NCBI GenBank assembly: GCA_000091205.1
Contig: AP006498.2
Source of the DNA: Cyanidioschyzon merolae
Lineage: Eukaryota
Length of the DNA stretch: 64,000 bases
Strand: one strand, 5' to 3'
This document shows positions 2,760 to 42,195 of the stretch, one piece after another; within the stretch, counting starts at the first letter, position 1, and every line of letters starts with the position of its first letter. The position numbers and the translations under genes were made by a program. The notes below the pieces were generated by a model, which saw only the letters and a list, made by a program, of their open reading frames with translations, was not told where the DNA came from and did not search any database.

Positions 2760-3554
2760 ATGCTCCGCTTTACCTCAGTACAGTCGTTGACGGCACGTCT
2801 AGCCGCAACGGTCGTGGGTTTACCGCCAACCAAGCCCCTAGTCTTTCCACGGGAGACTGTGAGCGAAACGAGCACAGGCATAGGCGTGGATAGCGACGAA
2901 CTAGGACCAATCGCCCCGGTTCGCGTCGCAACCACCGAGCACCATCGCACCTGGGCGCGTCCAGTGGTGTCGTCGAGGGACCTCGCACCGAACGACACTG
3001 GACCTTGTTTGAAAAAGTCACAGGTCTGCCCCAGGTGTGGCAAGGCGTTATCTGGGCGCGGAAGCGTGCACAGGCATATCCGCGTTGTCCACTTAAACCG
3101 TAGGGATCATATCTGCCAAGTCTGCTGCGCCCAGTTTTCAGAGCGCAATGCCCTACGTCGCCATGTCCGTGCCGTCCACGAGAAGCGCTTCGAGTACATA
3201 TGCAAGGTGTGCAATGCCCAATATCGCTCGGCGAAAGGATTACACGTTCACTATCGTTCCAAACATTTGGGCCTTCGTCCTTTCCAGTGTTTGTTTTGCG
3301 AGAAACGCTTTGTGAGCGCCGTCCACCGTGAAACGCACGTACGCGCCGTGCACATGAACCTGCGCGAGCACGGCTGTCCACACTGCGCCTATCGAACAAC
3401 GACGCGCGTCGGCCTCTTGTCGCACATTCGAAGGATGCATGATGGTGTAGAACGACAGCCATGTCCGGAGTGCATTCGTGAATTCCGTTTCAGTGAATCG
3501 TTAAGGAAACACTTGCGTCAATTTCATCGCTGGCAAGATGACGATTTCTGGTGA
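2760..3554 (+). CDS. C2H2 zinc-finger protein with six tandem C2H2 fingers.
   Basis: ATG start. Repeated CxxC...HxxxxH units: CPRCGKALSGRGSVHRHIRVVH, CQVCCAQFSERNALRRHVRAVH, CKVCNAQYRSAKGLHVHYRSKH, CLFCEKRFVSAVHRETHVRAVH, CPHCAYRTTTRVGLLSHIRRMH, CPECIREFRFSESLRKHLRQFH. This is a eukaryote-type transcription factor. Confidence 0.7.
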   Translation: MLRFTSVQSLTARLAATVVGLPPTKPLVFPRETVSETSTGIGVDSDELGPIAPVRVATTEHHRTWARPVVSSRDLAPNDTGPCLKKSQVCPRCGKALSGRGSVHRHIRVVHLNRRDHICQVCCAQFSERNALRRHVRAVHEKRFEYICKVCNAQYRSAKGLHVHYRSKHLGLRPFQCLFCEKRFVSAVHRETHVRAVHMNLREHGCPHCAYRTTTRVGLLSHIRRMHDGVERQPCPECIREFRFSESLRKHLRQFHRWQDDDFW

Positions 3555-4262
3555 ACAATTGCAGTGTGATCACGTCCGATGTGCCACGGGGCGGCCGTCC
3601 CCTGCCATGCATTCGTCTGGCTGGACGCTGGGTCGATGCGCTCGTGGCATGTGGCATCCATGGTTTTTGGGTTTTACAGGTGCAAAGTTGATGCTGATGC
3701 CAAGTGGAACACGAGAAGGTATCGAATGAGACTTGCGGTTTTGTGCAAGCGCCGATACTGATGCGTGGGATGCTGTGCTAGGGATGCCGCTGCCGCGGCA
3801 GCAACAGCATCCTCATGTTCGGAGCGATTTTAACGGGCGGCTGTTTGCATTCAACTAGCAGTATCGGCACGGAGAACTGAAGATTCGACTTCGAATGCTC
3901 CGATTGGCAACCATTAAGAGACGCTTTCCCCGAGATCGAGGCAATTCGTGCGTTTACGCCTCATCTGCGATCGACAGGGCAGCACATTCTGGATACCTAT
4001 TGCGCGTCACGTTTCGACAATGACGCTCGAAAGGTCGACCATTCTGTGTGTGCCCCTTCGACGTCGTCCGTGCAACACGAGCGTCCGCGAAGCAACGCAC
4101 ATCACCGGATCCAATACTTGCCTGAACGCAGATACCCATCGTGCTTCCCAGGATCCAAACTAGATTCACTGATCCAACACAATAAAGAAATCCCCCGATC
4201 AAGAGCGTCCGTTGATCGCACCATTCGCTACCGGGTCGCGTGTGAAACGCTCTGAGCAAGAC

Positions 4263-5732
4263 TCAGTGCTGGTCCTTTGAGATCGGTATCCGATCCTGGC
4301 GGCTTTCGCGCTCCTCGTTGGGATCGTCACGTATTTCGAGCCGATACATCCGCACCATTTCCGGATTATCCTTTTCGGTGTACCAGTATTCCACAAAACG
4401 TCCGTCGGGGCTCTCGATTCGCTCGACATCGAGCTCGTCAAGATCGACCTCGCCAGGGCGATTTCGAAGTCGACTGACAAAATCATCGTTTCCGTTCATC
4501 CGAAAGAAGGATTCCTCGTCTTCATCGATGCTTGGTGTGAAGAGGCGGTGATCATTGGCCCTGCGCGATGCTACCGCGAAAGCATTGTTCGCATCTCGGA
4601 TGATCGGTTCTGGATGGTGCGGTTTCGGGTTGAAGCGCTCGTGCTCTTGCCGAATCATGTAACTGCGCAACAGCATTGCGCCACAAAACTGCACAGCTCG
4701 TAGAAACCACGGGTTCCTTATCAGCGCTTGAAGCGGTGAACGAGGATACCGCTCATCTGCTCGAGAGCGGCGCTTGTCATAGATGTAGACCAGCACCTGG
4801 GTATCCTCAGGTCCCGTTTCCATGCCGAATAAATCTGCTTCCAACGGGAAAACGAATCGACGAATCCCATCGTAAAGCTGCGTAATCCATGGCGTATCGT
4901 CTGGTAGCTTTCGCTCGCCGGTTTCCTCTATCACCGGGCATTTGCTGGAATTCTCTGCGACAAAGACGGGAAACCGGACGGCTTTTAGCGGCCCAGTGAG
5001 ACGTTCAATAAGTAAGTACACGTAGTCACGACGACCGCGGACGTATTCGGGGTAGCTCAGCGAGTCAGGCGGCAATGATTGACCATGGGTAAAGACTACC
5101 ATCATGTGGCGAAGCACTTCTGCCCCGAAAAATTCCATCAGAACTTTCCAATTGTGGTAATCAACTAGATCAGGGCGGGTGTCATCGAGACGCATGACGT
5201 AGAGAATAGCGTGGAAGGAACGCAGATAAGGATGCTCATCCGCACCCCGAGCGTCGAGGAGCTTTCGAAGCCGTTGGACCTGCCGTCGACTAGCTTCTAG
5301 GCCGCTGCGTCTACAAGGTGCTATCCCTGGGGTATCAATGAACTCGATCACCACGGAGTCGACTTGTCGAGCACATACTTGCGCGTTTTTCGTTCCCCGC
5401 TCCCACGCAGACACAGAGCACAGGTTCTCGTTCAGGAGCGTGTTGATCAGGGACGACTTGCCAACACCAGGTGCTCCCACGACCAGAAATCGCAGCCGTG
5501 GCACTCCTTGTCGTTCCGCTGCCAGTGCGAGACGCAGAATCGCTTGAGCAGTCGGCTCGGGTACGTCCTCAAGTGCAAGCACTTGCTCTTCGTAAACGTC
5601 AGAGTCTTCTAGAGGATAGGCAAAGGTTCCGTTTTTCCTGAACAGCGAAACAGGCCGCTGGGTAACTTGCCCAGTTCGATCTGGTGAAGCACGCTGTTCC
5701 GCTTCATTCTTGGTAGGCGTCTCCGAGTCCAT
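4263..5732 (-). CDS. TOC-family (Toc34/Toc159-type, AIG1-class) GTPase, a plastid outer-envelope import receptor homologue.
   Basis: ATG start. G1 motif VVGAPGVGKSSLINTLL and G3 motif IDTPGI. The block ILYVMRLDDTRPDLVDYHNWKVLMEFFGAEVLRHMMVVFTHGQSLPPDSLSYPEYVRGRRD is colinear with the Toc33/34 signature LYVDRLD.yRvD.lD...FG.eIw...l.VLTHAQ.sPPD.L.Y. The protein has an N-terminal roughly 80-aa extension and a roughly 190-aa C-terminal region. Confidence 0.7.
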   Translation of the reverse strand: MDSETPTKNEAEQRASPDRTGQVTQRPVSLFRKNGTFAYPLEDSDVYEEQVLALEDVPEPTAQAILRLALAAERQGVPRLRFLVVGAPGVGKSSLINTLLNENLCSVSAWERGTKNAQVCARQVDSVVIEFIDTPGIAPCRRSGLEASRRQVQRLRKLLDARGADEHPYLRSFHAILYVMRLDDTRPDLVDYHNWKVLMEFFGAEVLRHMMVVFTHGQSLPPDSLSYPEYVRGRRDYVYLLIERLTGPLKAVRFPVFVAENSSKCPVIEETGERKLPDDTPWITQLYDGIRRFVFPLEADLFGMETGPEDTQVLVYIYDKRRSRADERYPRSPLQALIRNPWFLRAVQFCGAMLLRSYMIRQEHERFNPKPHHPEPIIRDANNAFAVASRRANDHRLFTPSIDEDEESFFRMNGNDDFVSRLRNRPGEVDLDELDVERIESPDGRFVEYWYTEKDNPEMVRMYRLEIRDDPNEERESRQDRIPISKDQH

Positions 5733-6329
5733 GACCTGATCGGTGGCTAGTCGTATCGATTAGACGCAGTGCGCTCCCGACACATGCAGCCGAGCCATAG
5801 AGCGCAAGCGGTATCGGTGCCGACGCTCTGCCCGGTCCGTGTCAGTCCGTAGACTCTGGTACCGGGGCTATCGCTTGTTATCGGTACACCACCAACGCCC
5901 GGGGATAATCCTAGTGCCAGAGGTCTATATAAGCTTCGCTTGCGGACGCCGCACGCTCCTCGCTGCCGGACTTCTCTGGCAGGCGCAGGCATCTGCGAAT
6001 GGACTGCGTTCGATTGCGTCGGTGCCCAGCAGCGAGGCACTTGTGAAATCGATGGATTCTGGTTGAACAATCGACTCCCATACTGCGAGAATCTGGAGAA
6101 GCGGTGGGTTCCTCACTGGATTACCGAAAATAATTGTGGACTCGGGAGTACCGTGTTCAGATCAAACGATAGATCTTACGCCATGCACTAGAAAACCAGA
6201 TTCGATTGCTAATGGACCGCTGAACTCGTCGCTCTGCTCATGCCTTGCGATCTTTTCCGCAGGTTTTCTAGTTTTCGAGACTGGACCATTGAAATGCTGC
6301 AATTAGAGCTTAAAGGCTCATAGAATTTT

Positions 6330-7560
6330 TAGGATGCTTGGTCGTCGCGTTTTCGGAGTTGCTTTATCGATTTTTTGTCGCTGGTATTTCGTGAGTTACG
6401 TCCATGAAGATGATTCGTGACATCCTCGAGCAGGGGTTCGTAAATTAACCGATCTCGTTATCAAATGTATGCGAACAAGCCTGTGCTCTTCTCTGCTTGT
6501 GTGTATGATGCTCAAATCGCCTCTTTCTCATGTTTTCGACCAGCTCTTTCTTGGCAACTCGTGTGCGTGGCAACTCGTACACCTGCATCGACAATGGGAA
6601 AAATCAACGTCATCCTTTGACGGCTTGATGACAAGCTCAGACCTAGATCCCACTGCGCCTGTGACGTCAAATCATCGATTCCGTTCGAAACACGAATCCT
6701 GTTCTCTTTGCGGTCAGCGACAAAACGGCATTCCCCAGCAATACGATGCCTTTCACGGGATATGCTCCCAGATGCTCCCGTCTCTTCTGTTTCCTTGGAA
6801 AAGGGACTTGGAGTCCAACGATTGCAACGATCGCCTCGAGTGAGGAGGGTGTCACAGCTCTGCGCAGATGCACGTAGACTGAACGAAAACTCGCAACTTG
6901 CACTTCCTCATGTATTCTGCCTCCGGTGCTTGTTCCATAATGGATAGCATCGCGTTCCACAAATTCTCTATCGAGTCAGAGCGCGTGCGCTTGAACGTAT
7001 AGCGGACAGACTGCTCCTCAGGGGTATCGCCTGGTAGGAGCCCGTGATCCTATGGCACGTCATCGGGCCCATGAACAGAGGCGAGCATCGAGTGGAGCCT
7101 TCTGTACCCGCCAAGGTCTTGCACCGAGCGATGAAGCAAGCGTTCTAGCGCCACGCGGCTGCCCTCGGAGCAGACTTGAAAGCCGTCATTGGCGTACAGC
7201 AGCACCTGACCACATCCCAGTCTCACTGCTGCAAACGGCGCGCCGACGCCCTATACGAAGATGCTGTACAATGGCGAGCGAAACGTAGATCGCAACTTCA
7301 GCTTCTGCACGAAATCCGTGAACATCATCGGGAAGCCGCGAAATCCGGACTTGGACGCTCCCATCAACATCCTTCATTTGAGAACACTGGAGCTAGACGG
7401 AAAAATTTAATCGCCGGATTCAAATCCAGAGATGGTACGGAGCAAAAGGAATCAGTCACTGAACTAGCCCCAGATGGCATACGGTGTGCTGGTATCACTA
7501 CGAAACATGCCGCACTTGAGCCTCGGCATCCGTGGTAAACGACCTGTCCATTTGATCTAA
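6330..7560 (+). mobile_element. Family-Y TnpB/Fanzor-like element, copy A (decayed, non-autonomous). Boundaries are approximate.
   Basis: Nucleotide blocks shared with copies at 25200, 34230, 42196 and 62400, for example cgtaaattaaccgatctcgtta, gctcaaa..c, caactcgtgtgcgtgg, cccgtctcttctgtttccttggaaa and ccggtgcttgttccataatggata. The downstream ORF 7176-7538 keeps a degenerate zinc-ribbon/RuvC-III-like stretch SHCCKRRADALYEDAVQW...HEIREHHREAAKSGL, homologous to copy D's CHSCAARTEAVFKKYENEKR...CRKRHKRDLDAAINIL. Confidence 0.45.
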
Positions 7561-12159: not shown

Positions 12160-13480
12160 GCTGGTCGACGATTATTGTTCGTGAAACAAAAAATGTCCCA
12201 CGACTATGAAGGGTAAAATGAATACCCGAGTGCAGATGCCTCCCAGCCGTTTCTTGACCAGCCGCCTGCTAACGACATCAGCTTCTCGTTATGATAGCAT
12301 CGGAAGCCGCCGGACGAGGGTCGCTCGCGTGAGCTCCTCGGGTCTCGTCGTCAGCACCTGGCATTGTCCGATATTGATAGCAGCATTCAAGTCTCGGTTC
12401 GCGAACTCCCCGCGTGCATTGGCGCTGGCTGAAGTCATCAATGCAAGGATTCCTCGAACTCGTGTCCTCGGTGCCATTTGGTGCTCGGCCAGCGCTCCGT
12501 ACCATTCTGTCGCCGAAGCGCTGCGCGGCCTTCTCTCCATCTCGACGTTCTGAAGTGACCACCCCAGGTCATCCAATAGATTATGTATTTCTTGCATATA
12601 AATGCTCTTGTTTCTGTCCTTAGGTGAGGACGTTCCCGAAGGGAGACGGATTTGCGGAAGCAAGACCAGATGTACCCTGGTGCCGCCATGTGCTTAGCGC
12701 TTTAGCGATTCAACTAGTGGAGCGATCATTACGTTTCATGGTAATAACACTCCTTCGATGGGGTTCAGCTGCAGGTTGTACTGATGCATGAAAACCAGCT
12801 CTTCCCCGATAGAATCAGCAAATGCTCGGACGCGAGGGATGTGCTCAAATGCCTCGTGGTACAATAGAAGCAAGTCGCGAAACGTTACACGAAAAGTCTT
12901 TTATTTATCGACAAAGTGGTTGCTGCTGATATATGAGCGTTTTCTACGTGCGAAACTAAGACAGCCAAATGAATTCTCTATAGCTAATACAGCTGATGTC
13001 GTCGTTCTCTTCGGGATCGTTGATATAGTCAGCCGGCTCCCTGATCCGCGAATACCCACAAACGTTCCGACAGTTTCATTCGAAGCAATTCTCATCAACT
13101 AGAGAAAAAAACCAACGTCCCTTGGCTTCGTATCGATTCCGACGTTCCAGAAACGCTGTAGGTGCAATTTCTGTGGAAGGTGGCCGTGCGTGATCTACGA
13201 CTCTTTTTTGCGACTGAATCCTAGTGTTTACGGGACCGCACGAACGAGCTGTTGCGAAACAGAGAAGCCTGTGGCGGTTACGATCGCCGCTTTTGCTATT
13301 TGCGTAAGATGCTCAACCGGTCCTTTTCTACCATTGACCACAAGCACGCTTTAAGAATACAATTCTCTGCCCAAGGCGCGTATACTTGTTTCGTTCTGTG
13401 TTCCTCAACCATCTGAGTACTGTGGTATAACTGTGCTTATGGAGGAATGCAGACCTCTTCGCACTGCTCAGTAACGAATG
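12160..13480 (-). mobile_element. Family-X TnpB/Fanzor-like transposon remnant, copy 1. The tnpB-like gene is on the minus strand and carries frameshifts.
   Basis: Its ends are defined by homology to the second copy at 35060-36480. The left ends read tattgttcgtgaaacaaaaa(a)tgt...cagatgcctcccagcc. The right ends read attgacca(c/a)aagcacgctt...cagagtactgtggtat(a/g)act...gaggaatgcaga...cactcagtaa. The minus-strand ORF 12289-12663 encodes ...ANARGEFANRDLNAAINIGQCQV, a canonical TnpB RuvC-III (D.NAA.NI) motif. ORF 12901-13098 has VLAIENSFG, resembling the RuvC-II glutamate motif. Confidence 0.55.
12289..13100 (-). pseudogene. TnpB/Fanzor-like RNA-guided-nuclease homologue, frameshifted (family X copy 1).
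   Basis: Split across at least three short minus-strand ORFs. The RDLNAAINI motif is followed by the C-terminal tail LTTRPEELTRATLVRRLPMLS, which is shared with copy 2 (ALKTRPEKLTRADFVRQPLML). Confidence 0.5.
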
Positions 13481-13510
13481 CATCCTACAGGCAAGTCACC
13501 CACGATCTGT

Positions 13511-14377
13511 TCAAAACATAACATCATGACTTCGATCACCTGCGATAACCTGCAAAAAGAGCATTCGGTAACACGCAGGCGTGGTTGAGTAAAATTGAGT
13601 TTCCAGAATATGACTAGTGCTGAGCATGCGATAACCGCCCCAGTGCATCCCTGAACCTTCAGCGGCATCTGCAAGGTGGTGTTTCTCTTTGGATGTCAGA
13701 TCTGACTCAGCGCCGGTCAAATGTGCAGCATTGATATGGACGCCGTGTCGAGTCCCCGCAGCTGGATGGATGAACTGAATGATCTCATGACGAGAACTTG
13801 CCATGTCTTTCAAAATTCGACGAGAGGACACATTTTTGCGACTTTGGGTCCTGTCACGCTCCTGGGCACTTCTACGAGCCGTCATCGTCACTGACATTGC
13901 ACCGTAAACATCACAGAGACATACGCTGTGCTTGTGGCGCTGGTCAATTCCACCGATGGTACGGGGGCCGAAGACCAAAGCTCCTCGCTTGCAGCGGATC
14001 TTTGGGAAATCGGTAGGACGATGAGGGTCTCTGTGTTTTCGCGATAATATGATGAACGCTGCGATATCAAAAAGCAGCGCACTGTAGTCGTCAACCAGTT
14101 GCCCGGGAAAGTCGTTTCTGGTGTATGCATGCGGCTTCCCAGGCTCGCTGTATCGCTGATTGATCCAGACGAGTGGCTTGTTCCCGGCAGCGACGAAGAG
14201 AGGCACAGCATCGATCTCAGCTGCGTAGTCTTCGAACGCTTTTGAGCGATGAAAAACGATACTGTCTACGATCAGGACAGAATAATTTACGAAGCAGTAC
14301 CCACGACCTGCTTCGACGGAATGATGGCATGTTGAAGGAGCTTGGCCATTCAGTGATTTGCAGGCGACCACACACAA
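13511..14377 (-). CDS. Hypothetical ORF of 288 codons. Doubtful as annotated.
   Basis: The track start is TTG (cag ttg tgt gtg...). The first in-frame ATG is only at about codon 160 (MSVTMTARR). I recognise no domain. It abuts the right end of family-X copy 1 but has no counterpart next to copy 2. Confidence 0.2.
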   Translation of the reverse strand: MCVVACKSLNGQAPSTCHHSVEAGRGYCFVNYSVLIVDSIVFHRSKAFEDYAAEIDAVPLFVAAGNKPLVWINQRYSEPGKPHAYTRNDFPGQLVDDYSALLFDIAAFIILSRKHRDPHRPTDFPKIRCKRGALVFGPRTIGGIDQRHKHSVCLCDVYGAMSVTMTARRSAQERDRTQSRKNVSSRRILKDMASSRHEIIQFIHPAAGTRHGVHINAAHLTGAESDLTSKEKHHLADAAEGSGMHWGGYRMLSTSHILETQFYSTTPACYRMLFLQVIAGDRSHDVMF

Positions 14378-18274: not shown

Positions 18275-19109
18275 TGCCGTTCGCTGATGACGAGTGCTCG
18301 TTGTTCGTCTATCGACACGATCATGGCGGCGCCCGAGCGTTTCGACTCGATGGTATCGTGGACCGGGTCGCCACCTGGATCGGACAGCTGTAGACAGTCC
18401 CGATTCCAGACAAGAGGCATGGAAACGGCCGACGTTACGGAAGCAGCTCCCGGGCGGGCAATGTCACGCTAAATTCGGGCTAGACGAGGTCGCTGCTTCC
18501 GATGCTAGGCTTGCGCGTCTTGGAAGGAAACGTATTGATCATCACACAAACATGCGGTTCGTACTGGAGTCCGTAGCTGTGATTCCCAAACTGAGGTAAC
18601 GGATCATTCCCGCACAGCCAGTGCATCGACGAACGCATCAGATACCTCAGGGTACGTTTGCGTGCCTGGAATATAAACGATAGCCCGCATTGGCTAGGCA
18701 GCTCTTTACTGGCCGCGTTGCAGCTTTGGTACCGCATCCGCAGTGTCCAGCATGCTCGCGGTGGGCGTTACTGGCTCGACGCGGCTCCCGCACCGTCCAC
18801 GCTTGTGTATCGAGCAGCGTCAGGTGCGCGCCCTGCGACGTAGACGCCGCTGCAAGAGACAACTCCTTCTTTTGCTCAGCTCGACGCTGGCGTCATGATG
18901 CAGGCTCGAGCGAGCGGGTGCGTGCTCACGCTTGAGCAACGAAAACGCGGCCAAGACGTTCCAGATGGCAGCATGCGCTTCTCCAGGTACGCGTGTCGCG
19001 TACGGTGTATCCGGCTTTGCGTCCAACAGCCAGCAGTTGCCCGCGTGTTCTTGTATGGATCTGGTGCTGCATTTGCTTCACGTATTCATTCCGAAGCATC
19101 CGAAGAGCA

Positions 19110-19310
19110 TCGATAGATGCTGGCACTCGGGTGCAACAACAACAACAACAGCAGCGATCTATGCGCAAAGCAATATCCTCGTGTTACGGTAGCCGGGCAC
19201 TGTAGTCATCGATAGATGCTCGCACTAGGGTGCATCAACAACAACAACAGCAGCGATCTATGCGCAAAGCAATATCCTCGTGTTACGGTAACCGGGCACT
19301 GTGTTCCGTG
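19110..19310. repeat. Tandem duplication of two units of about 100 bp, each containing a (CAA)n(CAG)n microsatellite.
   Basis: The unit atcgatagatgctggcactcgggtgcaacaacaacaacaacagcagcgatctatgcgcaaagcaatatcctcgtgttacggtagccgggcactgtagtc is repeated immediately with about six substitutions. Confidence 0.6.
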
Positions 19311-21372: not shown

Positions 21373-23088
21373 TGGAGGAATATGATGATGTGAATGACCG
21401 ATCACAATTGATATATAAATGCATTGGCGGGTGATGCGCGTTGGCGACATCGCGGCAGCCGAGGCAGCTGGCACCGACCGCGTTGTGACGCAGGCGTTCG
21501 TGATCGCGCTGCGCAGCGGTCTAGTGCGGGCGACTTCCTGAAGTCGTGCTTCCGGTCTCCCGGGTACGACACTGCACCCATCGGGCCGGTTTGCTGTGAG
21601 AGCGCAGCTCTGGACACGGTGGACCGTGGAAATCATCCGAGAAATGGGTACGTTTGAAACCTAAGTGACTGAGAGTGCTCGCAATCGCACGAAATCCCTG
21701 TTAGATCCATCGATCATGTGGGGAGGAATTCCCTCAGTCATTCGAGACTGGGCGGCATCCGCGGTGCGTTCCACCAGCGCAGCGCTATCGGGCTTTCGCA
21801 CGAGTCGACGCGCTCAGCTTCTGCATAACCGGTTTTTCTTGGAGTTGAATCACTTGAACGAACTGGGATTCCCCGGGTATGCCATTTGTGTTGGAAACCT
21901 GTGAAGAGACCGGGTTGCCTTTGAGGCATCTCAACGTTCCGCAGGTCGCATACCAGTGCATCCATCGGGATCTGCGCCTAGACTGATCTAGCGCTTTCCC
22001 TCGTATGCTGAGTCTGTATCCGAAACTGGCTGTGGCGCCAGCATTTTTCTTTTTTGTTTCACAGAAAGCTAACTTAGAGCAGATATGCCTGCGATGACGC
22101 TATCTCATACCCGCACCCAGAAAAGCGTCCGCCACGTATCCAAGCACCGCTTCCCATATTTGCCCGCGAAGATACACATCATTTCCTCCGTTCCACTCTG
22201 TGGCGAGTCTGTCGTGATCCCCATCAATGACACCTATCGCGCCGGTGTGCATGCAGCAAGGATACGAGACGCGTTTACCGTAACACTACGAGCGTCTGCT
22301 CGAGATCTCCGCTCCATAACGAATCATGATAATGATGATATATGTCAGTCAAACGAAAGCGTTTCACGACCGTTGCTAACGAATATATCCCCAAACGCGC
22401 AAACGGCTCCCAGCCTTTTTCGCCCGATCGACTGGTATCGTTTTCAGATTTTATCCCTGCAGAGTTCGAGCCTGAAAGACCGCCCTATAAAGTTCGCTCG
22501 CCTCAGCTCCCCAGGTCTGATCATTAGCACCACACATCGTCTGATGCTGTGTGAAGTCTTGGTTCGGGAACTCCATGCGTATATTCCCGCATGTTGAACT
22601 CATGTTTGCAAGAATTGCTCGAACACGTACCCTCTGTGTCACAAGAATCTTGTCATCGCCCCGTGGGGCAAATACCTTCTATCGTCTATCTCTCCATATT
22701 TTTTTATTCTGATTCTTCGTTCGAAAGTCGGCGAGATGAGGGTTTTTTTTCGTTTTTCCGGCAGCTGGTGATCACGTCCCCGCAGGATCCTCGCCTTTTC
22801 CGTCCATACATTTCCCTCGGATTTTTATTTCTTCGAATCAGCGCACGTCATACATACTTCCTATGAAAAGTAAAAAAGCATTTGATGACACTTACCTGGT
22901 TATGGAACACCCTTTAGTTGAGGCATTACCATCATGGTACACTTGTCAGGAAACAATGCCCCTGTCTCATGCAAATGCAGACGCCTATTGCGCGTCGAAT
23001 CTGCGTCTGCGACTGCTGCGTCGATTGCGCAGTTTTCGAACACGAGCGCTCGCCCCCAGTGCCTCTATTCGAGCGTTAAACTCGGGTT

Positions 23089-24864: not shown

Positions 24865-25199
24865 CGCGATGATTGATTTGGATTACGAAGGAACCTTGCT
24901 TCCAGCGAACTGCACCCGCGCTTTCTAGGTTCCTTGTAAAAAATCTCTGGGACTACTCCTCCGAGCGCTATCATGTTTGAATCATACGAGAAGCGGGCGC
25001 TAGCTGGTTGTTGCGCTCATTCCGGAGCGCGAGGCGCACCCGATCACTACGACCTGTTGATAGGGGGTACAATCCGCGAATACCCCAGCGGGTACCGTGT
25101 CATCTATCATGGTAGGATTCCAAGCGGGACGCTGAACGAATCGCTGTGTTCCTGCCTTTCGACTTTATTCCGAAAGCTTTTTAGGTGATACTTAGTTTC

Positions 25200-26530
25200 G
25201 ACATCCGAGGAGCAGCACAAAGGGCGTGCGCGTTCATACGGACTTTCAGGCATGTAGAATGCGTTTTCATTGAGAATCCTTCGACTCCTTACCGCTGGCA
25301 TTCGTTAGGATACAGGAACCGAGATGGTTCACGGCGCCAACGACCGTGGGTTTGTCAAATAATCGATATCGTTATCCTGCTCATGCGCAGGGGTCCCCAT
25401 GCGTCTCGATCCCGTTGGTCAGGCATACTGGAATCACGCATTCTTCAAATATTCGATCGTACTGGTTCAAAGCAACTCGTGGGCACAGCTATTCATGCCT
25501 CAGGACTGACGAAGAAAACGATTCGACGACGTTTCTCGACGACTTGTTCACACGCTCGTGCAGAAAGTTCACTGAGCCTGTCACGTCTATTTATAGATTC
25601 CTTTTGAAAGACAGATCCCCCGTGACCTAATGGCCATCTAAAAAACGGGGTATGCTCTCTGAGGCTGCCGTCTCTTCTGTTTTCTTGGAAAGGGCTTGGA
25701 TGCGGGTCCAAGTCACCGCTGCGATCGCTTCCAGTGGAGCGTGCTTCAGCGTTGTGTAGCTAGGGTATGTAAAAGGATCGACATTGTTCGAATGGGTACC
25801 AAGCTCAGATTTTCCTTCCGGTACCTGCCTCGTTATGGACAATATCGTGTTCCGCAAATCCGATTGTTTTAGGGAAAACGGCATAGAGTGGATTATGGGT
25901 TATCTTGGTGACTACGAGTTATTCTCAATGGCCCGACTCGAATCGGAACATGCTCAGGGCCGTCAGGAACGAACCTGGAGTCAACATATGCGTATCTCAG
26001 CAACTCTGGGCCTCCTCTTCGATCCGAGCTGGTGCCTCGTGCTCGTACCGCCACGGCTATGCGCACTGGGCTCATCGGAGTGTGCTTTCCGCCATTCGAT
26101 CGTATTTTCGGATCGAAGAGTTCCGTAGAAGCATGAAGATCAGTGTTGAACGGGGCACAAAAAGTATGTATTGCACGGTTGGCAGTGGCGGTGCAACACC
26201 CATGCGTACCAGGCACCTCAGTAGAACAATTCAGTGCGAGCAAGAAAGATTTCCGGGGGTGTTTCGGAAACAGCTGCATAGCATCTTCAAAGAACATCGC
26301 CACTCCCGGAGAAAACGCGTTTGCTGCGAAATGCTTATCGCCTGGTCGTCCGTATTTGAGTGTCAACATGAGCAATTGGGCAAAAACGCGTAAACGAAAC
26401 ATGTCGAGATTTTTCTCCTCGTCAATTCGGAGACGTGCGCTGCTCCGTCCACGAGTTGCCCATACAAAGAAAGGTCGAAATTTTTGTACAATGCGTGATT
26501 TTATCATGCTCCTCATCAGGCAATAAGAAT
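25200..26530 (+). mobile_element. Family-Y TnpB/Fanzor-like element, copy B (decayed). Boundaries are approximate.
   Basis: Shares the upstream blocks caaataatcgatatcgttatcc, caactcgtgggcacagc and gacgacttgttcacacgctcgtgcagaaagttcactgagcctgtcacgtc with copy D, and ccgtctcttctgttttcttggaaagggcttgg plus tgcgatcgcttccagtggagcgtgc with copies A, D and E. The downstream segment ggatcgacattgttcgaatggg...ccttccggtacctgcctcgttatggacaatatcgtgttccgcaaatccgattg is homologous to copies A and D. ORF 25905-26393 has a degenerate zinc-ribbon-like stretch, CEQERFPGVFRKQL...EHRHSRRKR. Confidence 0.45.
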
Positions 26531-31366: not shown

Positions 31367-32845
31367 ATGGAGCGAGGAATCCCGGAGGAGATACTGCGAG
31401 AGTCGACAGACGCCATCGCACAGCGTGCACGTCTCATTGAAAACGAGGTGCGTGAACTCCGGCGTGAGGAAGAACGGCTTCGTCGCGAAATCCAATCCCT
31501 AAACGAGAGAGTGAAAGAGAATGAGGAGAAGATCAAGCTCAACGCTCAGTTACCGTTCTTAGTCGCGCATGTTGTGGAAGTGCTCACGCCGGCCGCTTTG
31601 AAGCGAGCGCCCCCGTCGCTCACCGGGCCAGGAACGCAGAGTGCGCCACACGCTGAGACGGCCTTAGCAACGCAGCCGAATGGTAGTGTTTCGGAAACTC
31701 AAGGCGAAGCAAGGAACCAGCGTTTGGGCTCGGGTGCACGCGGAGGGAGCGACCTCATCAACCGGAGCTCCGGTATCACCAGCGAGACCCAGACCCCGGG
31801 CGCTGCCGATCACGAAGACGACCTTGACGACGCTGAGGAGGATGAAGGCGCTGCTCAAGAGTCGGATGCCAATCAGCAGTCACCTGCGGTCGTTGTGAAG
31901 ACTTCCACCCGACAAACAGTGTTTTTGCCCATCCCTGGACTGGTTGATGTCTCCGAGCTCCGCCCTGGTGACCTCGTCGGGGTCAACAAGGACAGCTATT
32001 TGATTCTTGAAAAGCTTCCCGAAGAGTACGACGCACGAGTAAAGGCCTTTGAGGTCGATGAAAGGCCCACGGAAGATTTCGCCGACATTGGCGGCTTGGA
32101 CAAGCAGATCGAGGAAGTAATCGAAGCTGTTGTGCTGCCGATGACGCACAAACACTTGTTTGAACGGGTGGGAATCAAGCCCCCAAAAGGGGTGCTCATG
32201 TATGGCCCGCCTGGAACTGGAAAGACGCTCCTTGCTCGCGCGTGTGCAGCACAAACCAAAGCCACATTTCTGAAACTAGCGGGAACCTCACTCGTTCAGA
32301 TGTTTATCGGAGATGGTGCCCGTCTTGTGCGAGATGCATTCGCACTGGCAAAGAAAAAGGCGCCGTCTATCATTTTCATCGATGAACTGGATGCAATTGG
32401 TACGAAACGTTTCGATTCAGATCGCAGTGGTGATCGCGAAACACAACGCACCATGCTCGAGTTGTTGAACCAACTTGATGGATTCGATCAGAACGATGAC
32501 GTTCGCGTCCTTGCTGCGACGAACAGACCAGATATCCTGGATGCAGCACTGATGCGTAGCGGTCGACTCGATCGGAAGATCGAGTTTCCCCATCCCGATG
32601 AAGCTGCTCGGGCGCGGATTCTGCGCATCCATTCACGGAAGATGAACGTTCACCCTGACGTATCCTACGAGGAACTTGCTCGCTCAACAGACGATTTTAA
32701 CGCAGCAATGTTGAAGGCGGTTTGCGTGGAAGCTGGGATGGCGGCGTTGCGTGCGGATCGAAAGGTTGTGATTCACGAGGATTTCATCGATGGGATTGCG
32801 GCTGTGCAAGCGAAGAAGAAAATGAGTTTGAACTACTATGCGTGA
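31367..32845 (+). CDS. RPT5: 26S proteasome regulatory subunit Rpt5 (6A, PSMC3-type AAA ATPase) with an acidic low-complexity insertion.
   Basis: ATG start. Walker A motif [32 protein letters not shown] and the C-terminus [17 protein letters not shown] (Rpt5 ends in NYYA/QYYA). The N-terminal coiled coil [22 protein letters not shown] and the OB segment [20 protein letters not shown] match Rpt5. About 90 aa ([23 protein letters not shown]...[26 protein letters not shown]) replace the roughly 24-aa acidic linker of other Rpt5 proteins. Confidence 0.9.
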
Positions 32846-32927
32846 TACGACCCGAAAGGTTGTGATTCACGAGAATTTCATCGATAGGATTGCGGGTGTA
32901 CAAGCGAAGAACAAGATGCGTTTGAAG
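32759..32927 (+). repeat. Duplicated 75-bp segment: the last 75 bp of the Rpt5 CDS (32759-32835) recurs at 32853-32927, immediately after the stop codon.
   Basis: cgaaaggttgtgattcacgaggatttcatcgatgggattgcggctgtgcaagcgaagaagaaaatgagtttgaa compared with cgaaaggttgtgattcacgagaatttcatcgataggattgcgggtgtacaagcgaagaacaagatgcgtttgaag gives about 90% identity. The copy encodes RKVVIHENFIDRIAGVQAKNKM in ORF 32838-33026. Confidence 0.8.
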
Positions 32928-34229
32928 AACGACGCGGGAACGCGGTTGTGTTTTGGCTACGCGGTGCCACAGAATCACACCGCGAGCGTAGCACCGGGAT
33001 TGCAGCCTGTTCAAAAGTGTGACTAGATTTTCCAGACAAGTTGCACTTGGATCGCTCCGTATTGTGAACCGGATCATTCCTGCACCCGACAATTGAGGCA
33101 TGGTCGGGTTGTGCTGCAAGCAGCTGTCCGGTGAGCGGTGCTCATGGGTACCTTACCATTACGTTTACTCAAAGCGCCGAATACCATATGGATATTGAAA
33201 CCAGGCTCCCAAGCTCCTGACCACTTTCATGTACCTCATTGGTTACATCATGCTCGAACTTGTCCGTGAATACAGTGAAAAGCGATTCAGTTTCGAGCGA
33301 GACAGGTGTACCATGGTGATTGCGACGTTCCCCGCTGAAGCATGGCGAGAGCCTCGTCGAACTGCCTTCTCAACAAGGTATCAAAGAACAGCAAATACAA
33401 CCCTTGATTTTGGCGCATGTCTGTGCGAGCTTTTGGTTGCAATTTGACGACGAAAATGAGTCACAAATCGACATTCACTGCTCTTCTCATTTCAAGAGTG
33501 CACATCTAGAAAGTTCCGAAAGCGCAGCAGCAGCAGCAGCAGCAGTTTCAGATATGGCGACAGCCTGATGCCCGGCCCTCCGCAATACCATTCTCGATGC
33601 ACTTCGAATTGCGGAACTACGTGCGAACAGCACGTGCGCGACCTCGTTCACAAGCAGTGCGATGTGCTGACCATCCCCGAAAAACCGCTGATACACGACG
33701 TAAAGCCACACGGCGAAAGCCTCTGAGCGTAGCTACCCCATGGGACGACATTGCGCACCGAGCAGGGAGTCAAGAACTTGCCCCGTCTACTCCGAGAAAC
33801 GAAATTGCATATGTGCGTTGCTGCAGACGCCTCCCGCCAATACCTGGCGAGTGCGGGAACGCATCCACGCTGACGAACACACGTTGTGCCGGTGCCATGT
33901 GATCCCGCATCACTTTATCGACTCATATTGTGGCATTCGAGACGCCGGATTCGCGATACCCTTTGTTTCCATACTTTGCATACCAGATGCAGCAGTGAAT
34001 GCAGCGCGGAATGATGCAGCGTGCACCTTTCTCGTCGAAAATCTCAATGACCACAGCTGCACGAGGCGCAGGCGTCCTTCACCCGCGTCCGATGCATATG
34101 GAACACGGAACGACTTGCCGGGTTCCTGAATGGAGTTTTTTTTGCGAAAGCTTTTCAGATGCACAGTTTCGAGAATCGCATCGCAGCAATTAGAGATGAT
34201 GGACGCAAACGTGGTCTCCGGATCCTCGC

Positions 34230-35055
34230 AAGCCTTCTCGGAATGGATCATATGACGCTTTGCAAATGGAACCTGGTTACGACACCGGAAGCGAGATGAA
34301 TCGCGATTTGTCGAATAACGCTTCGTAAATCAACCGATATCATTACCAAGTGCATTCTCGCAAGCATCAAAGCTTCTGCTGTTGTTTCCTTTTCGTGCAG
34401 CATGCTCAAAGCACGCATTTTTCAGGTTTCGATTCTTTTAGGCAACACGAGGGCGCAGCCATTGGAGCCATCCATTGACGACGAAAGAAAATCGATTTCG
34501 TCTCTTGACGACTCGTTCATTGGTTCATGCGGCAAGCACCTTGAACAAGTCATATCAATGAATCGACTCCGTTCGATAGCCGAATGCTCCTCTCCTCCTG
34601 GCCATTGATGAAACGATATTCCACGACAGTATGATGCCTCTGATGAGATATGCGCTGAGCGGCTCTCGTACGTGCTGGCTGCGTTTCACAGGATCTTGAA
34701 CTCGGACTTGAGTCATCCCAGCGATCGAGTAAGCGGAGAGTGCGTCGTCGCTTTACACGAACGGAGCATTGACGGATCGAAGGCATATCCAACATTCTAT
34801 TCTCCTGCAGCGGAGGCGCTCTTCCTCGCCCGGTCTAAACACCTTTTGCAGACTGACAATATGGGCGGACCTATATTCTGATAAGCGCCTCCTCGACAGA
34901 GTCAATCTTCACGACAGTGCTGTTCCATAAACCTTATCATTGCAAATCGAACAAGACGTTTGGTATGGAGATCTGGATCGACCTCCAAAGCACATGTCTC
35001 TCATGTTGCTGCTGCTGCTGCTGCACGGTGTGTCAGTCAGCCGAAGATCGATGCG
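34230..35055 (+). mobile_element. Family-Y TnpB/Fanzor-like element, copy C. It is truncated at its 3' side where it meets family-X copy 2.
   Basis: cgtaaatcaaccgatatcattacc, gcatgctcaaagcacgcatttttcaggtt, cgactccgttcgata, gagatatgcgctgagcggctctcg, cttgaactcggac, cagcgatcgag and cattgacggatcgaagg are homologous blocks shared with copies A, B, D and E. There is no TnpB C-terminal region, and the homology stops near 35055. Confidence 0.4.
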
Positions 35056-35059
35056 TCTA

Positions 35060-36480
35060 TTGTTCGTGAAACAAAAATGTTTCATGACCCTGGCAGGTAT
35101 ACATTTACCCATTTACAGACGCCTTCCAGCCATTTTGGACCCGTCCCCTGCTACCGATTTCAGTTTCTCCTTGCACATCTCGAGCATGAGAGGCTGCCTC
35201 ACAAAGTCAGCTCGTGTCAGTTTTTCGGGTCTCGTCTTCAGTGCCACACATCTTCTGATACTGATGGCGGCTTTGAAGCCTCGGCTCACGTGCTCCATGC
35301 GTGCTCCCGCGCTGGTTAAACTTGCCGATGCAAGGATTCCACCGACTCGTGCCCGTTACGCTACTACAGTCCCGTCATCGGTCCGTCGAGGCGAACACTT
35401 TTTGCCGCCTATCTCCCCTCATGATCGTAGTCGTCGTCACTTGCTCTTCTTCGCTCGATACTCCGCGAGAAGAGGTTTTTTTCCTTGATTAGGCATCCGA
35501 GGATGACGGCCCTCCAGGATCCTCGACTTTTACGCACATACCTTTTCCTTAGATTTTTTTATTTATTCAGATGAACCCACTTCTTTATGCACATAGGTGT
35601 GGACCTACGCGGAGCGACTAGAACTTGTGGAAAAAAGAAATTATATGCCCGGCTTGCTACGGTGTGCTGAAAGCTCCAGCGATTCGTCCAGTGGAGCAAT
35701 CATGATACGTTTCACGATAGAAACTACGCCTTCGATTGAATTCAACCTCGGAGCGAATGGATTCATGAAAAGCAGCTCTACACGGTTGCATTCGCGAAAG
35801 CTCGAACGCAACGGGAATGGTGAAATGCCGCGTTGTCGAATAGGAGGACGTCGCCAGACGTCAGCGGAAAAATCCCCAATAATCCGTCGAAGTCGGTGCT
35901 GTTGTACGAGCCTCTTCTACGAGCGAAACTGAGGCGGCCAAATGGATCCACTCTATCTCGAACAGATGAAGGTATCGTCGTTCTCCTCGAGTTCAATCGT
36001 ACACACAACGATCCTTCTACTCTCCGCGAGTACCCATGTAGGGTCCGAACGTCCCGTCCGCAGCAAGTCTCAGCGACTGAAAAACACAAACCGACGTCTC
36101 CGTACAACATAACTATCGCGACGTTCCCGGAACGGTGTAGGTGCAATTTCGGTGAAAGATAGCCGTGGGTGAACTAGGACTCTCTTCTCTTGCGACGGTA
36201 TCCCAATGCTTCCAGAACCCAATGAATTAGTTATTGAGAACCGAAGAGAGCGCGAGAGAGACGCGTATGCCAACTAGAATCGTCGTTTTTGCTTTTCGTA
36301 AAGTGACCAACGGGTCGATTCCTACCGTTGACCAAAGGCACGCTTAGAGCACACTAGTTTTCGCGCAGTGCGCATCTACTTGTTTCTGTCAGTGCTCCTC
36401 AGCTATCAGAGTACTGTGGTATGACTGACCTGAATGAGGAATGCAGAGTCCCCCGCACCACTCAGTAAAGAATATATATC
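35060..36480 (-). mobile_element. Family-X TnpB/Fanzor-like transposon remnant, copy 2 (more decayed).
   Basis: Its ends are homologous to copy 1 (see the 12160-13480 feature). The minus-strand ORF 35113-35298 encodes RGFKAAISIRRCVALKTRPEKLTRADFVRQPLML, in which the RuvC-III Asp is replaced by Gly but the C-terminal tail is conserved. ORF 35778-36146 has FGRLSFARRRGSY, matching FGCLSFARRKRSY in copy 1. Confidence 0.5.
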
Positions 36481-36678
36481 CTAGAGCCAATTCGTCTCCG
36501 ATCTATACAACGCATTGCACCGTAACGTCGACCTCCTGCCACACACTGCGAACTAGCATTCCATAAGAGGCAGTGGCGTTGGAACAACCTCTCGCTGGAC
36601 GCATCTAGCGAACTTCAACGTTCGACGCGCAAGGATTCCGGATGCTATTCTTGTACGCGTTCGTACTGCCGTCGAGGG

Positions 36679-38472: not shown

Positions 38473-38584
38473 GCCGGTTGCAGTACGCTTGATCTGATTC
38501 GTCTAAAACGGATACATGATCGTTGACTAGACGCGAACTCGAACGGGAATCCGAGTATGCGTCATTGCCTCGAGTACGACATGT

Positions 38585-38612
38585 GCTCCATCTGCTGCTG
38601 CTGCTGCTGCTG
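38585..38612. repeat. (CTG)9 microsatellite.
   Basis: ctgctgctgctgctgctgctgctgcctg. Confidence 0.8.
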
Positions 38613-38865
38613 CTGCCTGAAAGTCGCGAGCATGCTTTCAACGCCGAGAGTTACATCCCAGTCGACTATGCACACCAGAATCTGGGCAAGCGGACACTGT
38701 ATAAATATTCCGAGTTGGCGACACGTTCTCTGAAGCGCAATATGACTCACTTTTGCTGGAAAATCGACCGGTTCTGGCGACCTTCCGCTAAAATATACAG
38801 CATAAGCGTATCGAAACACGTCGCTTCCCGGCCTTGCCACGGACAAGTGAAACTTACCTGCCTAC

Positions 38866-41944: not shown

Positions 41945-41955
41945 CACCAGCAGGT

Positions 41956-41999
<44 letters not shown>

Positions 42000-42000: not shown

Positions 42001-42195
42001 CGAGCCAAGTGCGCTGCTGCGGAAGTGCTCCGAATGGCTTCGCAATAGCGCCCTGCACCTCTGTCAGATTCAAATGGAACACAAAACTGCTCGCCATGTT
42101 CCTGTGTTGAGGCTTTTTAACCAAAGTCTGTTCAGGCGCAGAGCCTCGACATGCGTAACGCAGCACAACGAGTTCAGGAATTCATGATTAGCTAT

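Follow-up and report, generated by a model that had tools for sequence, protein, structure and literature searches.

The Fanzor1 family of Cyanidioschyzon merolae, CMe-1/CMe-1A, has been on record since its description by Bao and Jurka (2013, Mob DNA 4:12; PMC3627910). CMe-1A has a 3,169-bp consensus with 905 bp of non-coding sequence at its 5' end, the first 635 bp of which are the same as TE-N2_CMe; CMe-1A was reported without terminal inverted repeats (TIRs) and with its classification unknown, and intact CMe-1A Fanzor genes exist in C. merolae itself (PMC3627910). Two further elements described there, PUl-1 from Pythium ultimum and PGv-1, are Mariner/Tc1 elements carrying Fanzor1 (PMC3627910). 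In Spizellomyces punctatus, Fanzor1 "ghost loci" with an omega-RNA region were described; small-RNA sequencing revealed the omega RNA, and DNA cleavage by the protein was demonstrated (Saito et al. 2023; PMC10432273). The literature that we searched contained no report of RNA-guided DNA cleavage by any C. merolae Fanzor.

We analyzed a stretch of 64,000 nucleotides (the window; positions are counted from its first letter) from C. merolae 10D chromosome 16, ten open reading frames of which exactly match CMP28x-29x proteins; for a further frame, 36679-38472, an exact look-up yielded no record. Three elements in the window, designated X1, X2 and X3, are very probably dead, fixed relics of a C. 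merolae cut-and-paste transposon that carried a DDE transposase together with a CMe-1 Fanzor1 gene. As the Fanzor family is the one already known, the addition made here is modest; it is likely to consist of an IS630/Tc1-mariner-type carrier transposon for the CMe-1 Fanzor lineage, which was previously unclassified. The result carries little weight for biology at large, since the family is long on record and the copies are dead, and its points of interest are for transposon specialists.

Copies in the window

The initial annotation described two copies on the minus (coding) strand, and the alignment of X1 with X2 from end to end confirmed this. The 5' blocks (12577-13578 and 35550-36573) showed 67% identity (blastn, E 2e-86) and the 3' blocks (12173-12467 and 35058-35354) showed 70% identity (E 3e-27). 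As a whole, the X1 relic comprises 1,434 bp (12175-13608, minus strand), with boundaries set at the start and end of homology among paralogous copies, and the X2 relic comprises ~1,545 bp (35060-36603, minus strand), with a 5' end that is uncertain by 2-3 nt. The left end that had been quoted as common to both, the 20-nt TATTGTTCGTGAAACAAAAA, was identical in X1 and X2 and was found 0 times elsewhere in the window, with 0 expected. The quoted right end (...cactcagtaa, ~13479) is internal, as homology among the copies runs to 13608 in X1 and to ~36603 in X2. The quoted peptides were likewise recovered, namely NRDLNAAINIG at 12399-12367, SRGFKAAISIR at 35286-35254, the common tail and FG(C/R)LSFARR. 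Both copies had been called frameshifted, which is correct for X2 but not for X1, where one continuous frame with stop codons runs from 13560 to 12289 uninterrupted by a frameshift.

Besides these two copies, comparison with CMe-1 and CMe-1A (tblastn/blastn) revealed a third, partial copy, X3 (22343-22898, minus strand). It is a 5'-truncated copy of the X2-type without the transposase part, in which the Fanzor1 5' UTR and residues 1-43 (22807-22685) are followed by residues 643-728 (22642-22394), and it was 66% identical to X2 over 457 nt (blastn, E 2e-28). The mutual identity of the window copies is ~70%. X1 was found to be fixed without indels in six strain contigs, each sharing more than 99% identity with the window; these contigs (L002-L007) are syntenic and more than 99% identical throughout, so the comparison is too shallow to speak to constraint or to presence and absence. 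An orthologue of X2 with 97-100% identity was present in another strain (L063). A second Fanzor-like family (Y), of more canonical type, has also left relics in the window; for C. merolae, a single Fanzor family was listed in the 2013 survey (PMC3627910).

Transposase and Fanzor1 parts of the relics

In both X1 and X2, the first 1 kb from the 5' end is a DDE transposase gene of the IS630/Tc1-mariner type that has become a pseudogene; it lies on the minus strand at 12682-13482 in X1, where it forms a single frame interrupted by stop codons, and at 35644-36476 in X2, where there is one frameshift near 35781-35787. Only once this frameshift was repaired did X2 reveal a match to Pfam DDE_3 (PF13358), scoring 33.8 bits (cut-off 28.6; E 3.7e-8); the match to NCBIfam IS630 (NF033545) had an E value of 7.7e-8 but lay under the 100-bit cut-off. 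The X2 transposase had 38% identity (126 aa, E 6e-19) to the DDE_3 protein encoded directly ahead of a CMe-1 homologue in a related locus (L008), 28% (192 aa) to the transposase of another (L009) and 27% (89 aa, E 5e-6) to the Mariner transposase of PUl-1, the last alignment extending across the second D and the E. A Pfam scan of the raw X1 frames yielded nothing, and the X1 transposase was detectable only via the X2 relic (42% identity, E 7e-37) and the L008 transposase (30% over 104 aa, E 5e-9). A profile built from both transposase relics gave no match at E <= 0.001 among 5.8 billion proteins. Both are pseudogenes with stop codons, and the D,D(34-35)E triad is intact in neither. In X2, the first catalytic D was lost (SVAET, D to A), and the second D (LLFDNAAFHH) and the E (LNSIE) were retained ~35 residues apart. 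In X1, the second catalytic D was lost (LLLYHEAFEH), and the E of LNPIE was the sole triad residue retained.

In X1 and X2 alike, the last 260-400 bp derive from the C-terminal end of the CMe-1 Fanzor1 gene, and the earlier assignment of the 3' part of each copy to a Fanzor/TnpB-like relic is thereby upheld: the published CMe-1 protein matched X1 (tblastn, E 1.7e-21), X2 (E 3e-19) and X3 (E 2e-5). The X1 relic (12313-12570, minus strand) corresponds to CMe-1 residues 612-698, including NRDLNAAINIG, and was 55% identical to CMe-1 (tblastn) and 73% identical to nt 2737-2971 of CMe-1A (blastn). X2 contains a C-terminal relic of residues 646-726 (35116-35355, minus strand; 56% identity by tblastn) and an N-terminal relic of residues 5-44 (VEDPGGP..., 35396-35527, minus strand; 48% identity, E 0.006). 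The X copies align inside the C-terminal block of the CMe-1 family, and the CMe-1 consensus was their best match among 46 family proteins. The RuvC-III motif (RD.NAA.NI) is present near the C-terminus in X1 (NRDLNAAINIG) and has decayed in X2 (SRGFKAAISIR) and X3 (NQDF..SIRR), the change from D to G in X2 being the loss of the catalytic Asp that had been noted before. Chance was rejected as the source of the pattern D.[ND]AA.NI, which had 2 occurrences in the six-frame translation and 0 in 300 shuffles.

The catalytic triad of the nuclease is incomplete in X1, X2 and X3, where residues ~45-611/645, with DPGNTN (RuvC-I Asp) and DEFRTS (RuvC-II Glu), were deleted. In the alignment of intact family members, both motifs (D484 and E656) are invariant; because this region is deleted, the window copies are relics of the CMe-1 family and not functional members. 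An intact copy had been anticipated elsewhere, and a 752-aa family member was indeed found in a closely related strain. The Fanzor1 fold was examined with an intact relative (P0121), not with the relics. All seven PDB matches of its AlphaFold model at E <= 0.001 were Fanzor1 (Foldseek; SpuFz, E 5e-12; GtFz, 3e-9; PpFz, 8e-9), the model being of low confidence (mean pLDDT 59, TM 0.29-0.35). Searching the PDB by sequence, with P0121 and with the family profile, gave no match, and the fold search was required. Although an intact CMe-1 family member thus resembles SpuFz1 in fold, the sequence identity between them is just ~14%.

In the initial annotation, the whole 1.3-1.4-kb unit, upstream peptides included, was read as a decayed stand-alone TnpB/Fanzor gene of the OrfB_IS605 type. 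This reading correctly assigns the RuvC-III motif and C-terminal tail to Fanzor, and the continuous frame of X1 would suit a single gene. However, the upstream 1 kb matched DDE_3/IS630 transposases rather than Fanzor, and the FG.LSFARR motif that had been counted as part of the nuclease belongs to the transposase pseudogene. In addition, tblastn revealed no counterpart of CMe-1 residues ~45-611 in X1 or X2, and the unit is too short for a 734-aa protein. The DDE_3 matches, together with the mapping onto the fuller copies L043 and L050 described below, already refute this reading, to which we give next to no credence. The label OrfB_IS605 is itself misleading, since DDE_3 was the only significant Pfam family in the minus-strand frames of the element and the carrier is a DDE_3 element; no TnpA of the Y1 (TnpA_IS200) or serine-recombinase (TnpA_IS607) kind was found by Pfam in those frames. 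Features in common with bacterial IS200/IS605 and IS607 TnpB are the C-terminal RuvC-III motif RD.NAA.NI and, in general terms, the concept of a 3'-end guide RNA. In contrast to those systems, the C. merolae element lacks a Y1 or serine-recombinase TnpA, and the CMe-1 protein has ~730 aa versus ~400 aa. Its clade has no recognizable C4 zinc ribbon, the cysteine pairs being largely absent, and falls under the PF07282 threshold even when intact. The check on the C-terminus with PF07282, the zinc-ribbon/TNB domain expected between RuvC-II and RuvC-III (E 0.25 for X1), therefore does not discriminate, because intact CMe-1 (E 0.5) and P0121 (0.2) also fail the threshold; OrfB-type checks were uninformative on the same grounds.

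Parent gene order and deletion derivatives

In related loci, the gene order of the parent was found to be transposase, then Fanzor1, on one strand. Two of these loci are near-full-length decayed copies: L043/L044 contains a transposase relic and Fanzor residues 1-83 and 221-726, and L050 contains a transposase fragment and Fanzor residues 1-734. X1 maps onto L043 at 2859-3734 and 5131-5525. The order was also observed in more distant relatives (L061, L062 and L068), and the gene pair is present in at least four loci of other organisms, in three of which it is intact (L009, L062 and L068); in L008, the Fanzor gene lies behind a transposase fragment, and the gene adjoining Fanzor in such relatives is DDE_3. 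The distant two-gene homologues L008, L009, L062 and L068 showed 28-43% identity. The transposase-bearing subfamily and these related DDE_3/Fanzor1 gene pairs point to a carrier of the IS630/Tc1-mariner type.

An old mariner-like relic could also have come to lie beside an unrelated CMe-1 fragment by nested insertion, with the composite then spread by segmental duplication. Such a chance juxtaposition would be compatible with the abundance of the CMe-1A subfamily without a transposase, with the often chimeric nature of Fanzor elements (PMC3627910) and with the weakness of the TIR evidence given below. We nevertheless regard it as extremely improbable: the transposase is directly upstream of Fanzor, on the same strand, in at least 11 distinct unlinked loci with unrelated flanks; L043 and L050 place it beside an almost complete Fanzor gene; the distant homologues have the same two-gene arrangement; and homology between the copies ends sharply on both sides. 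A single fused protein, with a DDE transposase and a RuvC-like tail, was also considered on account of the one frame of X1 and was rejected, because the fuller copies revealed a separate Fanzor start codon and ~600 intervening codons.

Returning to the two-gene transposon, we found that each deletion junction of the window copies is common to paralogous loci. In X1 (12175-13608, minus strand), the transposase pseudogene is fused directly to Fanzor1 codon ~611, a junction shared with L056, L070 and L067. In X2 (35060-36603, minus strand), the transposase pseudogene is followed by the Fanzor1 start with residues 1-44 and then by residue ~646 to the end; this junction is shared with L064 and L075, which also contain the N-terminal segment. 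Between the junction-sharing paralogs and the window copies, the translated transposase parts had only 36-51% identity. The X1-type and X2-type are thus propagated derivatives with the Fanzor gene deleted. Weighing against the two-gene transposon, the searches yielded no intact member of the transposase-bearing subfamily, and every X-type copy among 69 loci was decayed.

We propose that the full-length form was ~3.2 kb long, with an IS630/Tc1-mariner-type DDE transposase gene followed on the same strand by a CMe-1-family Fanzor1 gene, the frame of which would have ended only a few bases short of the element's 3' end. Internal deletions would then have removed most of the Fanzor gene, sparing its last 90-125 codons, the 3' terminus and the transposase gene in full. 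Derivatives of two kinds multiplied: in the X1-type, the region immediately before the Fanzor start is joined to codon ~611, and in the X2-type, codon ~44 is joined to codon ~646. All copies would later have decayed by point mutation to ~70% mutual identity. Mobilization was probably effected by the transposase of the element itself at TA sites, and the retained 3' module may have been needed in cis as a transposon end and possibly also have encoded an omega RNA. The multiplication of two derivatives that lost almost the entire Fanzor gene and kept the transposase gene and the 3' end fits a nuclease that is dispensable for transposition and a 3' end that is needed in cis.

Compared with CMe-1/CMe-1A, the X copies reside in the same genome and belong to the same Fanzor1 gene lineage; they match the 734-aa CMe-1 consensus over its first 44 and its last 90-125 residues with ~55% identity, and both groups are old, with copies ~70-80% identical mutually or to the consensus. 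The differences are that CMe-1A lacks the transposase and has another 5' region, whereas the X copies bear the DDE_3 transposase pseudogene upstream, and that the X copies have another last ~60 nt, a 3-nt deletion, diagnostic Fanzor substitutions and large internal deletions. Since CMe-1A has another 5' region and no transposase, the association could be a secondary capture and not ancestral in C. merolae.

Element ends and the 3' module

X1 is flanked by TA at its 3' terminus (12173-12174) and at its 5' terminus (13609-13610), as read directly from the sequence, and these are candidate target-site duplications. The 3' ends of X2 (35058-35059) and X3 (22341-22342) also adjoin TA; at the 5' end of X2 there is a 2-nt offset, and the flanks are short and decayed. 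Many paralogs terminate in ...CA|TA, and their 5' consensus is (A)TA|TGGTC, so that the consensus ends read TA|TGGTC...GACCA|TA. Right at the ends of the element, 20 of 29 positions match between the consensus termini (ATATGGTC...TGTTCCA); scored as a free local alignment, the inverted-repeat match was equaled by 137 of 500 shuffles, and a search of individual copies for TIRs with up to 3 mismatches found none. Of 68 copies, only X1, X2 and the orthologue of X2 carried the terminal 18-mer of X1 and X2, and it is therefore a variant of two copies and not the family terminus.

As in PUl-1 and PGv-1, the Fanzor1 part of the X copies lies downstream of a Mariner-type transposase in the same orientation; the TA target-site duplication of those elements has candidate counterparts in the X copies. 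In contrast, PUl-1 is intact with clear 24-bp TIRs, whereas the TIRs of the X copies are suggestive only, both of their genes are destroyed and the Fanzor gene is mostly deleted.

Every deletion derivative retains the last ~270-370 bp and the terminus. In X1, alignment of the copies placed the decayed end of the Fanzor frame, two hairpins and the terminus ...GTTTCACGAACAA in this 3' region (12175-12312, minus strand), with the terminal hairpin at 12182-12200. The X2 terminus (35060-35115, minus strand) has a perfect 7-bp hairpin, TGAAACA-TTTT-TGTTTCA (35067-35084), which was read directly from the sequence and seen in the alignment, and the terminal hairpin of X3 is located at 22349-22366.

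Nothing suggests any present-day function of the relics. The initial annotation had placed an omega-RNA scaffold at the 3' end. Hairpins do exist, with three possible within the terminal 110 nt and formed in 79% of cells, compared with 37-54% for slid controls, but covariation was not above the shuffled expectation, with 153-247 of 500 shuffles reaching the observed values. RNAalifold gave -3 kcal/mol, without any consensus fold or structure at the terminus, and Rfam had no family match for the 3' region. The kept 270-370-bp module could be an omega-RNA gene, with the derivatives acting as "guide-only" parasites or partners of an intact Fanzor1, a proposal that we consider highly doubtful. If true, scattered relics would still program a eukaryotic RNA-guided nuclease in trans in a thermoacidophilic alga.

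More broadly, the relics would be alive if the module yielded an omega-RNA-like guide in trans for an intact CMe-1 Fanzor1 or had been co-opted as regulatory sequence. The retention of the module by every derivative, the hairpins, the intact CMe-1A Fanzor genes (PMC3627910) and the ghost loci of Spizellomyces (PMC10432273) are in line with this, whereas the covariation, RNAalifold and Rfam results speak against it, and the copies have diverged to ~70% identity, like neutral DNA. Additionally, the last ~60 nt of the X-type are unlike those of CMe-1A, so the CMe-1A protein need not recognize X-type ends, and the strain comparison is too shallow to reveal constraint. A living module is accordingly very improbable in our judgment, and dead relics of a two-gene transposon are the reading that we prefer. 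The resemblance to S. punctatus is that both species have short non-autonomous derivatives retaining the region at the 3' terminus, which in S. punctatus lies at the inverted repeat and encodes the omega RNA; the C. merolae derivatives differ in that they also retain the transposase gene.

Extent and coding content of the X copies

Cyanidioschyzon merolae is a thermoacidophilic, unicellular red alga whose nuclear genome is very compact and poor in introns. Ten long window ORFs were identical to annotated strain 10D proteins, encoded by genes CMP28x-CMP29x on chromosome 16. The initial annotation described two decayed OrfB_IS605/TnpB/Fanzor-like copies in the window, at 12160-13480 and 35060-36480, and blastn bore out this pair, with 12577-13578 matching 35550-36573 (67% identity, E 2e-86) and 12173-12467 matching 35058-35354 (70% identity, E 3e-27). 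All peptides that it quoted were found in the window translation, and the motif D.[ND]AA.NI occurred twice in the six-frame translation compared with 0 occurrences in 300 shuffles. The proposed right end proved to be internal, as homology extended to 13608 in X1 (12175-13608, minus strand) and to about 36603 in X2 (35060-36603, minus strand). The count of two was also too low; a third, 5'-truncated copy, X3, was present at 22343-22898 (minus strand). The shared 20-nt left end was identical in X1 and X2 and, within the window, unique to them; it is a variant of the family terminus that, among 68 copies, was seen in X1, X2 and the X2 orthologue only. Both copies had been called frameshifted; this applied to X2, in which one frameshift was repaired, whereas X1 was interrupted by stop codons without a frameshift.

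Judged by its sequence, the 5' part of X1 and X2 is a transposase. The signature of IS630/Tc1-mariner transposases, L(L/F)(D/Y)(N/H)(A/E)AF(H/E)H ... LN(P/S)IEGV, preceded the Fanzor fragment in X1 and X2 alike. With one frameshift repaired, X2 matched Pfam DDE_3 (33.8 bits, cut-off 28.6, E 3.7e-8) and NCBIfam IS630 (E 8e-8), and it aligned to the Mariner transposase of PUl-1 (E 5e-6), a Pythium element that likewise carries a Fanzor1. The segment FG.LSFARR, quoted in the initial annotation as a shared upstream peptide, fell after the first and before the second catalytic Asp of the transposase. In X2, the second D and the E survived, spaced by about 35 residues, and in X1 only the E; both transposases are pseudogenes. 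We also observed a 288-aa ORF without a Pfam domain that abutted the X1 5' end (13511-14377, minus strand) and was recovered by gene calling in each of the six strain contigs. Its residues 25-73 (SVLIVDSIVFHRSKAFEDYAAEIDAVPLFV) resembled the second-D-to-E segment of the transposases on the contigs L008 and L009 described below (33% identity, pairwise E 4e-5), and the ORF is probably another transposase relic beside X1.

The 3' part of the X copies is a Fanzor by sequence comparison. One Fanzor1 family, CMe-1A, was reported in C. merolae by Bao & Jurka 2013 (PMC3627910). Its consensus measures 3,169 bp and encodes a protein of 734 aa, and about 150 copies share about 80% identity with it; the family was described as lacking TIRs and was left unclassified. 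The CMe-1 consensus protein and DNA from the supplements of that paper were used as queries. In tblastn, X1 matched residues 612-698 at 12570-12313 (55% identity, E 1.7e-21); X2 matched residues 5-44 at 35527-35396 and residues 646-726 at 35355-35116 (56% identity, E 3e-19); and X3 matched residues 1-43 at 22807-22685 and residues 643-728 at 22642-22394, all on the minus strand. When 46 family proteins were compared, the consensus ranked first for X1 and X2 and second for X3, in line with the copies being old.

Family assignment and parent architecture

The initial annotation suggested that an intact copy may exist elsewhere; we found an intact member, P0121, a 752-aa protein from a hot-spring metagenome. 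The Pfam check proposed in the initial annotation cannot decide the assignment, because on PF07282 the intact CMe-1 consensus gave E 0.5 and P0121 E 0.2. PDB sequence searches with P0121 and the family profile also gave no match. As these searches were uninformative, the P0121 structure was modelled from a 45-sequence alignment (mean pLDDT 59). All seven Foldseek matches of the model in the PDB at E <= 0.001 were Fanzor1 structures: Spizellomyces SpuFz (E 5e-12 to 7e-11), Guillardia GtFz (3e-9) and Parasitella PpFz (8e-9 to 8e-8). TM-scores reached only 0.29-0.35, as is consistent with a multi-domain model that is poorly packed; despite this, the predicted fold was clearly specific for Fanzor1. 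Separate evidence came from the second repeat family of the window, Y, of which a 682-aa protein passed PF07282 at 34 bits and aligned with P0121 over 272 residues (E 4e-6), spanning DPG..N, the central G.G block and NRDFNAAINI.

A protein search revealed distant CMe-1 homologues on short contigs resembling whole elements. L009 (1-3858) encoded a 395-aa DDE_3 protein followed on the same strand by a 662-aa Fanzor, the transposase gene overlapping the Fanzor start, and positions 1-28 of this contig recur at 105-130 as a 28-nt direct repeat; L008 encoded a DDE_3 fragment and then a 698-aa Fanzor, also on one strand. The X2 transposase relic was 38% identical to the L008 transposase over 126 aa (E 6e-19) and 28% identical to that of L009 over 192 aa. 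A single scan of metagenome contigs with the family C-terminal alignment gave 69 loci, of which most belonged to C. merolae-like genomes, and a transposase relic lay directly upstream of the Fanzor on the same strand in at least 11 distinct loci. In particular, L043/L044 combined the transposase with Fanzor residues 1-83 and 221-726, and L050 combined a transposase fragment with residues 1-734. The same order was found in the more distant L061, L062 and L068, at full length in the latter two; the DDE_3 transposase and Fanzor1 pair was intact in L009, L062 and L068. L008, L009, L062 and L068 represent other organisms, from ENA, JGI and NCBI metagenomes. L001, a standard CMe-1A copy, was without the transposase part. 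X1 and X2 mapped on the 5' 0.9 kb and the last 0.23-0.4 kb of L043.

For the C. merolae genome itself, this Fanzor family is on record (PMC3627910), and so is the two-gene Mariner-plus-Fanzor1 architecture for other species. The link between a Mariner-type transposase and Fanzor1 in C. merolae may be new, since the published CMe-1A was left unclassified.

Deletion derivatives and the retained 3' module

In X1, the sequence preceding the Fanzor ATG by about 10 nt was joined directly to codon ~611, and this junction was common to the loci L056, L070 and L067. In X2, the ATG and about 44 codons were kept and followed by codon ~646; L064 and L075 had this junction, and the X3 layout was the same. 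Over the translated transposase, the identity of these loci to the window copies was no more than 36-51%. Each deletion thus arose once, and the derivative multiplied afterwards. In both types the transposase gene was preserved whole, as were the final 270-370 bp. The derivatives would have been mobilised by their own or a sibling's transposase, with the 3' module presumably required in cis. Multiplication of Fanzor-deleted, transposase-retaining derivatives is possibly new as an observation.

Element boundaries were taken where homology started and stopped in the paralog alignment, giving consensus termini of (A)TA|TGGTCTTTCAACTCAATTTTGTTCCA... at the 5' end and ...TGGAACATTTTTTGTTTCACTGACCA|TA at the 3' end. 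TA flanked X1 on both sides and X2 and X3 on the 3' side. As an inverted repeat, the consensus ends agreed in 20 of 29 positions, among them the outermost 8; when scored as a free local alignment, the repeat was not significant (137 of 500 shuffles scored as high). The consensus Fanzor frame stayed open up to a TGA that lies within CACTGACCA at 5 nt from the element end, and the gene thus overlaps the terminal repeat. In Spizellomyces, the 3' inverted repeat is covered by the omega RNA, which reaches 14-15 nt into the flank, and short 'ghost loci' retain the omega-RNA region (Saito et al. 2023, PMC10432273); retention of the 3' module in the X-type derivatives is analogous. Three hairpins could be drawn in the last 110 nt of the 16 X-type copies, and they formed in 79% of cells compared with 37-54% with slid partners, the structure having been derived from those same sequences. 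Covariation in the 16 copies equalled the shuffled expectation, RNAalifold gave no terminal structure, and Rfam gave no match for this 3' end. An omega RNA encoded there, as proposed in the initial annotation, is therefore a hypothetical candidate that these results neither support nor refute.

X1 was present without indels in six strain contigs, which were >99% identical to the window everywhere, genes and spacers alike, and are therefore uninformative on constraint. Within the X-type subfamily, no intact copy bearing the transposase was found in the protein profile search or among the 69 loci. The simplest reading is that the X copies are fixed, neutrally decaying relics.

Family Y and other repeats of the window

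Six decayed Y copies were found, all on the plus strand, at ~6200-7400, 25130-25820, 34072-34670, 42048-43260, 58231-58800 and 62293-64000, the last extending past the window end. The Y 3' end encoded a canonical TnpB/Fanzor C-terminus (TTVKCHSC...CIDNCRKRHKRDLDAAINIL) with a CxxC...CxxC zinc ribbon and RDLDAAINI. With 25.5 bits, the 93-aa Y ORF at 42979-43260 fell just short of the PF07282 cut-off (26.3); the relatives P0173 and P0186 (about 680 aa) were above it and aligned with the CMe-1A Fanzor (E 4e-6). Y looks like a second Fanzor1-like family. It may be undescribed, because the table of Bao & Jurka 2013 (PMC3627910) lists a single Fanzor family for C. merolae. The two families were opposite in orientation, with the three X copies all on the minus strand and the six Y copies all on the plus strand; the Y copy at 34072-34670 was only ~400 bp away from X2.

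Additionally, a 52-bp unit with the consensus TATCATGGAAAAATCGAACGCAACACGATCGATTGCATTCGGCACTGAGGTC was arrayed in 35 tandem copies (96% matches) at 53902-55715. The array lay where AT content was higher (GC 0.47, AT skew +0.15), a short way upstream of a Cdc45-like gene. Runs of (CTG)n/(CAG)n at 38575-38616 and 41950-41997 formed an inverted pair around a carboxyl-terminal protease gene (39778-41922), and a CTG run at 35004-35026 was located just beyond the X2 3' end. Local tandem duplications were observed at 19108-19302 (96-99 nt, 96% identity) and at 32759-32939 (87-94 nt, 86% identity), the latter at the 3' end of the ORF at 31367-32845.
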